The notes beneath the pieces were generated by a model that saw only the letters and a program-made list of their open reading frames with translations, was not told the origin of the DNA and did not search any database. DNA of 24,290 bases from Oligoflexales bacterium. GTDB lineage: Bacteria > Bdellovibrionota_B > Oligoflexia > Oligoflexales > Bog-1112. A program made the position numbers and the translations under genes. Shown here piece after piece: positions 11,604 to 15,612 of this stretch (positions are counted from its first letter, which is position 1; every line of letters begins with the position of its first letter). The stretch is from NCBI GenBank assembly GCA_045105515.1, contig JBGCDR010000188.1:1-24290 (forward strand), written 5' to 3'.

Positions 11604-12533
11604 TCAGTATTGGTGAAGCCTGAGAAACAGCTTTTTCCTCATACCATGGGGTAGAAAAAAGTTCAAAGCAGCATAAGTTAAGATCATAAATGTTTTAGGG
11701 GGACACCGGTAACGTAAACTTTTTAATATATAAAGTAATGCTCGGAAAGGAGATTCGGGGATTGTCATGACTCCCTTTGATTTTGCAAGTTGATGACGCA
11801 GACTATTTATCAGATAAGTCGGACTACCTGGTTTTTTCAAAAAATAATCCAGAATACTTTGTAGCCCAGGAATAAATATACCTTGATCTGTACCTAGGTT
11901 ACTGCCATGAACCCGATAAAATGTAAGTGGAGATGGAATATGATATATTTTTTTTACAAAACTAGCTTTGAGCCAAAGGTGGTAATCGTCTACGCCTATC
12001 ATTTCTTGATCTGTACATAGGCCTCCCACAGAATTAAAAACTGTTGTTTCTATCATTCCACTTGACCAAGTAATAGGATTACCTTCGTAGAGCTCGTTTG
12101 ACTCAAGTATTTTTGCTGGTTTAACATCTGTTATGAAATCCCTGCTATCGAATGATTCAGTATTGACAATTATTCGATCTGTATAAACCACACCGGCGTC
12201 CGGACTCTCTAAAAATGTTGTAATTTGTGATTCGAAACGTCTTGGATGCGAATAATCATCATGGTCCCAAAATACTAGGTACTCACCTTTTGCAAACTTA
12301 AAGCCATGCATTCTAGATTTGCAAGGCAGACCTTCAGGGGTCTTACTATAGACTCGAAAGCGCTCATCCTTGACTTTTTCTATAAAGTCGATGGTATTAT
12401 CAGTAGATCCATCATCTACAAAAATCGCTTCCCAGCGCTGATAGGTTTGTGCTTGGAGGCTATCTATGGTGTCCTTCAAAAATCTTGTGGAGTTATAGCA
12501 GGGAATAATAACAGAAATCAAAGGTGAATTCAT
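11604..12533 (-). CDS. Glycosyltransferase family 2 (GT-A fold)
   Basis: LISVIIPCYN, FVDDGSTDNT, GEYLVFWDHDD (DxD), DDYHLWL, YRVH; SD AAGGA. Confidence 0.92.
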   Translation of the reverse strand: MNSPLISVIIPCYNSTRFLKDTIDSLQAQTYQRWEAIFVDDGSTDNTIDFIEKVKDERFRVYSKTPEGLPCKSRMHGFKFAKGEYLVFWDHDDYSHPRRFESQITTFLESPDAGVVYTDRIIVNTESFDSRDFITDVKPAKILESNELYEGNPITWSSGMIETTVFNSVGGLCTDQEMIGVDDYHLWLKASFVKKIYHIPSPLTFYRVHGSNLGTDQGIFIPGLQSILDYFLKKPGSPTYLINSLRHQLAKSKGVMTIPESPFRALLYILKSLRYRCPPKTFMILTYAALNFFLPHGMRKKLFLRLHQY

Positions 12534-13060
12534 GATGCTTCCTTAGCAAACTAGCAAATTTCCGCCACTATCATATGCTTTTAGCATATCTATGGGGGGC
12601 CTAATAGATTTTTAAAACAGTTTAATAAACTTTTCAATGTATTTAAACAAGAATTCCATCATCATGACCAGCATTTCCCTTGCTTCACCTCGTAGCTTTA
12701 CTCTTAAAGATGACAATAAAATATGAGCACATGAAGCCTACAATGAATAGATTCAAGAGAAGTCTGATAAACTGAAAGAAACGAAAAAAAAGAAACCTAA
12801 ATTATCCTAACTGTAGCCATATGAACTGAACTCCAGAAAGCCCCGCAGGAAGTGGTCAACAGGCCTAATAATAAGGGGGCAAGCATTTTTTATTTTCCTC
12901 CAATTAAGTTAAGCAAAGTCTATATTTTAAAAATGGAGAAGATTAAATGCAAAAGATTAGTAAAAATGGTAAAAGTGATTGATTATTATTTTGAGGAAAT
13001 TTTGAGGGTGGCGATGATTCTTAAAACTAGAGTTCCATAACCATAAGGCATGGAGTAAAT

Positions 13061-13081
13061 TAGGGGGCAATAAACCCCCTA
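13061..13081. other. Perfect 7-bp intergenic hairpin
   Basis: TAGGGGG-CAATAAA-CCCCCTA; no clear U-tract on either strand, so function unassigned. Confidence 0.4.
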
Positions 13082-13355
13082 GAAAATAGCAAAACCAAAG
13101 TCAAAACTCAACAATCATAAACATGTGCTTGTTCGTAGATTTTGCTAAAGAACTATCCTTTTGTTAGGGAGTTCGATTTTTTCCTGAGGCTCACTTAAAA
13201 TCAAAGCATTATTTTTCATAAATTTGTTTGTCATTTTGTAATGATAACTTCTTTTTGAATTATTCTTAGCACATTACTTCCTTGACAAATATAATATCCT
13301 CAATATCCTAGTTAAACCATACATTTCGAACAATCGTAATGAACACGGAAAAAAT

Positions 13356-14099
13356 ATGAAAATCAAATCAATTACTTTGTTTTTAAATCTAATGGTTCTA
13401 GGATCATTCAGTTTTTACTATGGAAGTGGTAAATCTGAAGCGACGCAACAGGAAAATGTTTTTTTTGATAATTTGGATATTAATTATTGTACTAATCCAG
13501 AAGAAGAATGGCCTGATGATGATCAAGATTACGAACTCACTTTTTTTCCTCGCCCGATAACGAATACTTCCCGTAGCCAAACCCAATGGCAACGAGAGCC
13601 TTCTCAATATGAACTCGATGAATTGTGCACTAATCGTCAACGCCAAGCTCTTCAAACCTGGTATAAAAGATTTTATGAACTGATTGAATACTGTGAGGTT
13701 AAAGGGGACTGTAATGTACCACAAAAATACAAGAACAACCCAGTGCTTGGCATATGGGTGAACAAGCAACGAATGGAAAAGAAGTACATGGATGAAGGAA
13801 AAAGATCTTCCATGACGCGAAAAAAGGTTCAAAAATTGGAAAACATTGGATTCCAATGGGGACAACGAAAGGGTCAACATCGATGGTCCATAAGATACAT
13901 TGAGCTCCGTGCGTATCATGAGCAGTTTGGTGATTGCGAGGTTCCCACAAAATACATAAAAAATCTAGCTCTAGGGCGATGGGTGAGCACACAAAGATCA
14001 GAATACAAAAAGTTTCCCAGTGGCCATTCCAAACAGATGACCCAAAAAAGAATAGACCTACTCAATGCCCTTGGGTTCAAGTGGGTAGCGTCTAAGTGA
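13356..14099 (+). CDS. Protein with two tandem helicase-associated (HA, PF03457-type) domains, no helicase core, and an N-terminal signal peptide
   Basis: Two copies of W..R(F/Y).EL..Y....GDC.VP.KY..N..LG.WV..QR.......MT.K....L...GF.W (about 13659-14087). N-terminus MKIKSITLFLNLMVLGSFSFYYGSGKSEA followed by an acidic linker. Confidence 0.9.
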   Translation: MKIKSITLFLNLMVLGSFSFYYGSGKSEATQQENVFFDNLDINYCTNPEEEWPDDDQDYELTFFPRPITNTSRSQTQWQREPSQYELDELCTNRQRQALQTWYKRFYELIEYCEVKGDCNVPQKYKNNPVLGIWVNKQRMEKKYMDEGKRSSMTRKKVQKLENIGFQWGQRKGQHRWSIRYIELRAYHEQFGDCEVPTKYIKNLALGRWVSTQRSEYKKFPSGHSKQMTQKRIDLLNALGFKWVASK

Positions 14100-14279: not shown

Positions 14280-15317
14280 TTAGATTTTATTTTGCACTGT
14301 CTCATTTTCATAAAGATGAGAAATTGTACGTAACTTATGCGCTATCCCTGGATATGGGTTACTAATAAATTTCTGATTAAATTTGAAATTGTTTTTTAAA
14401 AACCATGTATAAATATAAGAAATAATCGATAGGGATGCATAGGTACCCACAACCCATTTACTTGAGATCCTTGGTTTGAGTACAGGTATAAAACTCTGAA
14501 CTAAAGACTGAAACAATACCCCAGTTACAAGACCAGAGAAATGAGATGCATGTGCTATTTTTAGATTTGCAATTCTTCCAACACCTTCTGTTATCAATGA
14601 ATTCTTTATAAAATCTGCTGAAATATGATATGGGCTTTTATTTTGTAAACTTTGATTGTAACCAATCACTCCATAGATAGCACCTGAAGAACCTATGCTT
14701 GATGAGTGCGGGCCAGCAATTGCTGAGCCAATAGAAGAGCCTATGGTGGAAAGGATTAGAACTGAAGATAGTTCTGCACCTTGTAGATCTCCCAATTTAA
14801 ACAGATTATAAAGTTTTAAGAGATTTAAACCAAGATGCAAAGTGTTTGCATGGATAAATGAGCTAGAAAATATTCGATAAGGTTGTTTTAAAAGTGCTTT
14901 TAAAGCATGGGTTTTTTCAAGCAGATCTGCAAGATCATTAACCTTGAAGTAAGGAGAATCTAGCATTGAATTGAGCTTATTTTTATCGGATTTGGGAAGT
15001 TCTACAAACAATTTTTCGATATAGTCTTTGACAGGTACAACTAAATAACCATAATGAGTCTGCAAACCAATTATGTTCCTATTTTCATCTCCAAAATCTG
15101 CCGCAAAGGATTTTGAGATTGAATAATAATCAATATTATTCACTACTAATAACTGATAATCGCGGTCAAAAACCCCATCTTGAAAAGACTTAGACGATAC
15201 TTTTGGGTACGTAAAATCAGGATAGATTTCTGATCTTGATAAAGATCTCGATAGTGAATTTGATGCGTTTGCAATTGTGCAAATTATTAAAAAAGTAAGG
15301 ACTAGGATATTTTTCAT
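14280..15317 (-). CDS. Rhomboid-family intramembrane serine protease-like protein with signal peptide and soluble N-terminal domain
   Basis: PYRIFSSSFIHANTLHLGLN (H..HxxxN), catalytic GSSG (SIGSSGAIYGVIG), catalytic His region IAHASHFSGLVTG. Likely start MKNILVLTFLIICTIANA at 15317; the ORF track starts at 15404. Confidence 0.78.
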   Translation of the reverse strand: MKNILVLTFLIICTIANASNSLSRSLSRSEIYPDFTYPKVSSKSFQDGVFDRDYQLLVVNNIDYYSISKSFAADFGDENRNIIGLQTHYGYLVVPVKDYIEKLFVELPKSDKNKLNSMLDSPYFKVNDLADLLEKTHALKALLKQPYRIFSSSFIHANTLHLGLNLLKLYNLFKLGDLQGAELSSVLILSTIGSSIGSAIAGPHSSSIGSSGAIYGVIGYNQSLQNKSPYHISADFIKNSLITEGVGRIANLKIAHASHFSGLVTGVLFQSLVQSFIPVLKPRISSKWVVGTYASLSIISYIYTWFLKNNFKFNQKFISNPYPGIAHKLRTISHLYENETVQNKI

Positions 15318-15612
15318 TCTGAGATTTTCTCTTTTTTTGGAATTGATCCAAATAAGATATTTATATCTTCCAATTCGACTTCCATCTTTAGTTTCATTCT
15401 TCATATTTTTTCAATAATTCAAAATTTATGATTCTGTGGATATGATCTTCTATTTATTCATTTTATAAGGTGCCACAAAATAGCAAATTTGGTGCCAATG
15501 GTCTACCAACGAATCATATACGGCTGATATTACTATGAATATTCTAGTAAATATCGGAAGCACCAGAGATTTTAGCAAGCTCCAAATATAGTTTATGAGC
15601 AGCCCCCCTGAA

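Follow-up and report, generated by a model that had tools for sequence, protein, structure and literature searches.

The 24,290-nt stretch of DNA analysed here (the window), one contig of the draft genome of an uncultured, marine-type Oligoflexales bacterium, encodes a small stand-alone protein with two HA domains (PF03457) that closely resembles two-HA proteins of diatoms and begins with a segment resembling an export signal. That the bacterium received the gene from a diatom-like eukaryote is well supported, if unproven by the tree alone, and we consider a eukaryote-to-bacterium origin likely, with a diatom-like alga as the most probable donor. Eukaryote-derived genes in bacteria are a kind already known, and the window gene is a further member.

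The open reading frame is intact, starts with ATG and lies on the forward strand at 13356..14099, encoding 247 amino acids plus the stop with a GC content of 0.39 and a GC3 of 0.36. Pfam recognises the HA family in two stretches (E 3.8e-36, 123.6 bits against a cut-off of 28.4), the first over residues 100-166 (13653..13853, E 1.7e-15, profile positions 3-64 of 64) and the second over residues 174-241 (13875..14078, E 5.1e-19). No family besides HA, and no helicase, was returned by this search of the 247-residue frame, which agrees with the two HA repeats without helicase that had been read from the letters in the original prediction. The SF2 helicase domains of the helicase-linked HA type are absent also from the adjacent genes, which encode a GT2 glycosyltransferase (11604-12533, reverse strand) and a rhomboid protein (14280-15404, reverse strand). 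The gap between the glycosyltransferase and HA genes measures 822 bp (12534-13355), is long for so gene-dense a contig and holds no open reading frame of more than 73 residues. Two overlapping sigma-70-like promoter matches on the forward strand, TTAGCA-18-TATAAT and TTGACA-16-TATCCT, occupy 13266..13309, 47-60 nt 5' of the ATG; such consensus matches are weak evidence, with 10 sites in the 2-kb region against 7.0 +/- 2.3 in shuffles.

Three parts can be distinguished along the protein. Residues 1-29 (13356..13442) form the signal-like N-terminus, which is modelled with low pLDDT and runs from MKIK through 18 hydrophobic residues to GSGKSEA, with a 9-residue hydropathy peak of 2.29. Residues 30-80 (13443..13595) make up an acidic linker (pI 4.05) that is modelled as disordered, with block-mean pLDDT of 39-73. 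Residues 81-247 (13596..14096) constitute the basic double-HA module (pI 9.74; 33 K/R against 18 D/E), the portion held in common with the diatom proteins; its predicted structure, with block-mean pLDDT of 93-98 as far as residue 240, consists of six main helices, arranged as two three-helix units with a short extra helix in front.

The reading of the N-terminus depends on the start codon. The public gene call (P0001) has 235 residues and seemingly starts 12 residues later, at Met13, which would cut into the hydrophobic segment. We favour the longer start because residues 1-14 are kept in the closest relative, P0002, where Ile stands at the position of Met13. This relative, an ENA protein of 254 residues whose contig measures up to 25.7 kb, begins with the same signal-like segment and is 62% identical to the window protein overall; it is probably a bacterial orthologue, a bacterial origin that rests on the shared N-terminus. 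By hand reading and hydropathy a cleavable Sec signal peptide is plausible, and the 18-residue run could alternatively act as a membrane anchor; of the signal peptide proposed in the original prediction, the hydrophobic signal-like segment is present and conserved in P0002 (19 of its 29 residues identical), and cleavage stays at the level of plausibility that hydropathy gives. Identity between the two proteins amounts to 66% over residues 1-29, 30% over the linker and 67% over the module, as expected if export signal and module both matter, and the comparison suggests that the gene has been kept under selection since its capture. Export of the protein seems fairly likely. As to a route across the outer membrane, the T2SS L marker scored 22.5 bits against a cut-off of 25.5 in the host genome (91% complete), in which the T2SS M marker was not found.

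Relatives were collected by a first word-based search (230 candidates, of which 162 reached E<=0.001), and because the order of E-values favours proteins with many repeats, 285 sequences were re-ranked by their best single local alignment to residues 81-247. P0002 came first with 68% identity and P0010 second with 58%, followed by the Seminavis robusta protein (57%), P0014 (55%), the proteins of Thalassionema nitzschioides (named by the taxid of its record; 53%) and Fistulifera solaris (53%), and many further relatives at 43-56%. The prokaryote loci came from a scan of genome_contigs, described as holding one genome for each of 185,579 species, with the two most conserved motifs of the subfamily; it yielded no subfamily member, and its 14 prokaryote-genome open reading frames took ranks 209-285 of 285 with identities of 28-38%. 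The algal-like signature that had first drawn attention to the gene was thus confirmed, its quoted motifs being invariant and the named diatoms ranking, after P0002 and P0010, above every prokaryote sequence in the similarity check that had been proposed. Viral contigs scanned with the same two motifs gave 11 pattern matches and no relatives, so that no viral carrier of the subfamily was found there. An exhaustive profile-free search (17,514 proteins at E<=0.001) was unusable for finding nearest relatives because its ranking was driven by proteins of 3-18 repeats and carried no names.

What defines the subfamily goes beyond the Pfam domain. The motifs WVNKQRM, RKG and GRWVSTQR are invariant in all 14 aligned members, the window protein included, and the likeness to the diatom proteins starts some 15-20 residues before the domain (residues 81-100). 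Exactly two HA stretches and no other family were found in the proteins of Seminavis (P0012), Fistulifera (P0017) and Thalassionema (P0015) as well as in P0010 and P0002. The prokaryote loci are built differently: 10 of the 14 combine 5-11 HA repeats with ResIII, DEAD or Helicase_C domains in a single frame, and in the remaining four the frame that was read contains 3-9 repeats without a helicase. Two of the helicase-linked arrays (L017 and L019) begin with an Mrr-type restriction nuclease domain.

On the eukaryotic side, the subfamily spans raphid pennate, araphid and centric diatoms, and the diatom genome contigs that carry the named relatives measure 53 kb in Seminavis, 454-581 kb in Fistulifera and 903 kb in Cyclotella. 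A metagenome scan added 80 loci with 34-61% identity and GC contents of 0.33-0.58 (0.39-0.58 in 74 and 0.33-0.36 in 6). The module is whole in a single frame in 30 of the 80, and in 25 its two parts stand in different frames with a gap of 55-164 nt between them. Five such gaps were inspected, of which two have GTAAGT...AG ends (L078, 88 nt; L082, 55 nt, immediately before WVNKQRM); for the remaining three, the alignments do not end on the boundaries. We take these intron-like gaps to be spliceosomal introns; the window gene has no such gap.

What such a module does has to be approached indirectly. Foldseek returned no PDB match at E<=0.001, and the only clear match from VIA-align was 2kta, over residues 168-247 and hence the second HA domain (Z 7.0, rmsd 2.8, 69 of 74 residues, 28% identity; next Z 4.8); neither program matched the fold to a known DNA-binding domain. 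The best hit of a PDB sequence search was a LEAFY-like factor at E 0.49. Among the titles and abstract openings returned by a full-text literature search, none concerned diatom PF03457 proteins, and most papers on a 'helicase-associated domain' dealt, by the same openings, with DEAH/RHA-type RNA helicases such as DHX9 and DHX37, whose domain of that name is apparently a different one. Nucleic-acid binding is our best guess for the double-HA module because of its basic charge and the association of the family with helicases.

The explanation that we prefer combines these features with the origin of the module. The two-HA module would have been acquired by an Oligoflexales-type bacterium from a diatom or a close algal relative, a bacterial export signal would have been added in front of it, and the gene would then have been retained under selection. 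The N-terminus would route the protein over the inner membrane by Sec, the acidic linker would serve as a spacer, and the basic module (pI 9.7) would bind nucleic acid or a partner of the diatom proteins, and so imitate a host protein on or inside the diatom-like cell that serves as host or prey. Taken whole, this account falls just short of being probable. Among single roles for the protein, action directed at a host or prey is the one that we rate first, if only tentatively, because the subfamily-specific residues have been retained and an export signal has been added; a general nucleic-acid-binding role outside the cytoplasm comes next and is possible but rather unlikely. The original prediction had proposed acquisition from an algal host and re-export as a transcription-factor mimic: the diatom-type sequence is there and the transfer is well supported, while the identity of the host, the re-export and the mimicry are hypotheses.

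Two further double-HA genes in the same genome bear on the choice among these roles. They belong to a two-gene cassette of 1.8 kb that is present in two copies with 89% nucleotide identity, on contigs C41 (L002, 354-971 and 983-1777) and C282 (L003, 1168-1812 and 1825-2559). Each copy places a signal-bearing double-HA protein of 205 or 214 residues tail to tail with a signal-bearing protein of 244-264 residues and unknown function. The cassette HA genes are 33% identical to the window HA protein and show a dN/dS of 0.22, indicative of purifying selection. A third gene, in another genome of the order (G052, L022 316-900), encodes a stand-alone two-HA protein of 194 residues without a hydrophobic start, which groups weakly with an MMETSP sequence in the larger of the trees described below and may represent a separate acquisition. 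All of these share at most 43% identity with anything in a set that was chosen for likeness to the window protein.

The algal origin would be the same if the exported basic module served the bacterium itself outside the cytoplasm, with no mimicry involved, by handling extracellular or prey DNA or RNA in scavenging, in a biofilm matrix or in uptake. The excess of basic residues in the module would suit such a use, as would an N-terminus that looks like a plain Sec signal and not like the signal of an injection system, and the lineage belongs to a predatory phylum. The two signal-bearing cassette genes, duplicated and under purifying selection, likewise fit an extracytoplasmic role. Against this, all the invariant residues of the subfamily have been kept at 53-57% identity to the diatom proteins, which suggests a specific ligand beyond mere charge, and the flanks of the gene are without nuclease or uptake genes. 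We regard this use by the bacterium for its own ends as a somewhat unlikely alternative to action on a diatom-like cell.

The direction of transfer was approached through two trees. The first comprised 111 rows, namely the 65 sequences with 43% identity or more, a random sample of 28 out of about 150 full-length sequences below 43%, and all 17 genome-locus rows, and was calculated over 167 columns with a quick IQ-TREE search under LG+C20 PMSF. The window protein joins P0002 (SH-aLRT 96) and then P0010, which is unlabelled (85); these three fall within a group of 18 rows to which Seminavis, Fistulifera and Thalassionema also belong (88), itself within a starred set of 54 rows (95) that contains 13 named-eukaryote rows and no prokaryote-genome rows. 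Across the midpoint root from that set lie 14 of the 15 rows of other prokaryote genomes. In a first AU test on these rows, forcing the window protein and P0002 together with 14 prokaryote rows scored 2.97 lnL better (p 0.52). This outcome shows that 167 columns resolve little, and the test is uninformative because the free search was short and far from optimal and because nine unlabelled rows stood among the prokaryotic ones.

A second test used 45 chosen rows with full searches under LG+F+G4. Its maximum-likelihood tree unites the window protein, P0002 and P0010 with support of 98.1/100 and gathers the prokaryote rows in one clan (97.2/78), and joining the window protein and P0002 to the 14 prokaryote rows costs 26.0 lnL (p-AU 0.025, p-SH 0.024). 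The constraint was set up after the first tree, though it equals the outcome that the original prediction had named beforehand as speaking against itself, a place among bacterial helicase-linked repeats; neither tree shows that placement. The backbone bootstraps of the 45-row tree are 30-81% and the 54-row set is not recovered, and with the tree unrooted, the nesting of the window protein within diatoms requires a root on the side of the prokaryote rows.

Because support is weak deep in the tree, the case for the direction of transfer is built chiefly on the distribution of the gene among genomes. In the order, 3 of 95 genomes gave a protein match at E<=0.001, being the genome itself, G052 (35% identity) and one hit with three internal stops. 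Among 131 genomes of the phylum, 3 have a Pfam HA match that reaches the cut-off, and none was found in a genome of the same genus that is 94% complete (G012). HA is considered non-native to the lineage because of this scarcity and because the same-genus genome is without it. An empty site cannot be seen in the latter, as its glycosyltransferase gene lies 439 nt from a contig end.

The opposite direction, in which the two-HA type is bacterial and old, was passed to a diatom ancestor and expanded there, would make the window gene a descendant of the donor side. HA is mostly a helicase appendage of prokaryotes and viruses, as the 10 helicase-bearing prokaryote loci illustrate; the clade of the window protein sits at one end of the unrooted 45-row tree on a branch supported by 98.1/100; and a union with prokaryotic rows was not rejected when the AU test was run on 111 rows. 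In a language-model atlas, moreover, the first neighbour of the protein is a cluster of 243-aa HA proteins of which 63% are assigned to Bacteria, so stand-alone HA proteins do occur in bacteria. These observations are countered by the scarcity of HA in the phylum and its absence from the same-genus genome, by the lack of any prokaryote representative with the subfamily motifs above 38% identity, and by the rejection of the prokaryote union in the 45-row test. The subfamily is, furthermore, spread over pennate, araphid and centric diatoms, in which it lies on nuclear contigs of large size, and its metagenome relatives show intron-like gaps. Descent from a bacterial donor is improbable on this balance, and capture from a diatom-like eukaryote is the direction that we retain.

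The bacterial residence of the gene follows from its contig. The assembly has 6.29 Mb in 461 contigs, with a completeness of 90.9% and contamination of 4.83%, and the window is its contig C188. Over residues 400-900, RpoB is 89% identical to that of a MAG labelled Deltaproteobacteria, 79-84% to MAGs labelled Oligoflexales, 81% to a MAG labelled Bdellovibrionota, and 80% to Pseudobacteriovorax antillogorgiicola and an Oligoflexus sp.; judged by this marker, the host is an Oligoflexales-type bacterium. The window shares its glycosyltransferase gene (70% nucleotide identity) and an adenylate cyclase gene (79%) with the same-genus genome. Its GC content is 0.361 against 0.383 for the genome, its tetranucleotide profile correlates with the genome mean at 0.983 (median over 169 contigs, 0.985), and the GC and GC3 of the HA gene lie within the range of neighbouring genes. 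Such an ameliorated composition, together with the 62% overall identity to P0002, indicates that the capture was not recent. Window DNA was found in only three sequencing runs, all from a single study that bears the label plant metagenome and is possibly the source; no RNA run was listed as carrying it in this look-up. That algal DNA was misbinned or misassembled into the bacterial genome, as a fragmented assembly with 4.83% contamination, a size of 6.29 Mb against about 4.6 Mb in the same genus, and the limitation to three runs of a possible source study might suggest, is very improbable in view of the genes shared with the same-genus genome at 70-79% on this 24-kb contig, the typical GC and tetranucleotide profile, a gene GC of 0.39 against locus values of 0.39-0.58 in 74 of 80 relatives and 0.33-0.36 in the other 6, and an uninterrupted frame with a bacterial-style N-terminus that P0002 has in common.

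Two other genes of the window deserve mention in their own right. At 686-3019 on the forward strand lies a gene for a SNF2 helicase of 777 residues with a RING finger inserted between SNF2-rel_dom and Helicase_C, an arrangement typical of eukaryotic Rad5/Rad16/HLTF proteins. Its close relatives are few (80%, 68%, 38%, 32%, then 27% identity), and the nearest RING-bearing atlas clusters belong to giant viruses (Nucleocytoviricota) and fungi, which we give as a lead only; the window possibly contains in it a second gene of eukaryote or virus type. A protein of 564 residues encoded on the reverse strand (3173-4867) has two methyltransferase regions with many class-I methyltransferase matches and a weak match, just above the cut-off, to the DOT1 histone methyltransferase family (E 5.1e-5, 23.3 bits where 23 is required).

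Hardly any Oligoflexales have been cultured, and diatoms are among the main primary producers of the ocean. A diatom-type gene that appears to be under selection and to carry an export signal offers a testable clue to a close interaction between the two, and the compact, well-folded module of 167 residues provides a handle on a large family of two-HA diatom proteins. A more specific and more doubtful scenario is that a bacterium of this lineage, living on or in diatoms, and with three signal-bearing double-HA genes in its genome, secretes copies of a nuclear-type two-HA protein of diatoms to bind host nucleic acid or the partner of the HA proteins of the host. If true, no nucleomodulin-like mimic directed at an alga would precede it, and it would mark the identity of the host at the molecular level; if the link to diatoms fails, what is left is an ordinary eukaryote-to-bacterium transfer of a domain of unknown function.

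Among known proteins, the nearest counterparts are the two-HA proteins of Seminavis robusta (P0012, annotated as 'helicase'), Fistulifera solaris (P0017, FisN_22Lh110) and Thalassionema nitzschioides (P0015, MMETSP0156), which share the same C-terminal module of about 165 residues, are 53-57% identical over residues 81-243 and have the same invariant motifs and the same extension before the first HA domain. They differ in their length of 379-424 residues and their long N-termini, in place of which a signal-like segment followed by a short acidic linker is found in the window protein; P0012 and P0010 have a long N-terminal region without a hydrophobic start, whereas the window protein and P0002 begin with a hydrophobic segment. 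The helicase-linked arrays of prokaryotes (such as L007, L010 and, from Nocardia sp., L019) consist of the same Pfam domain and its three-helix unit, but have 5-11 HA repeats behind ResIII, DEAD or Helicase_C, some with Mrr in addition, at 28-38% identity and in a separate region of the tree. The structural match, 2kta, is an NMR structure from structural genomics of a single, uncharacterised domain of a longer protein of Bacteroides vulgatus (A6KY75), to which its title assigns no function. In concept, the closest parallel lies in the 'nucleomodulins' of Legionella and Chlamydia, eukaryote-like proteins with demonstrated targets that type III or type IV systems deliver and that act in the host nucleus. 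As with these, a eukaryote-derived domain has been kept by a bacterium and is predicted to be sent out, here with only a Sec-like signal visible.
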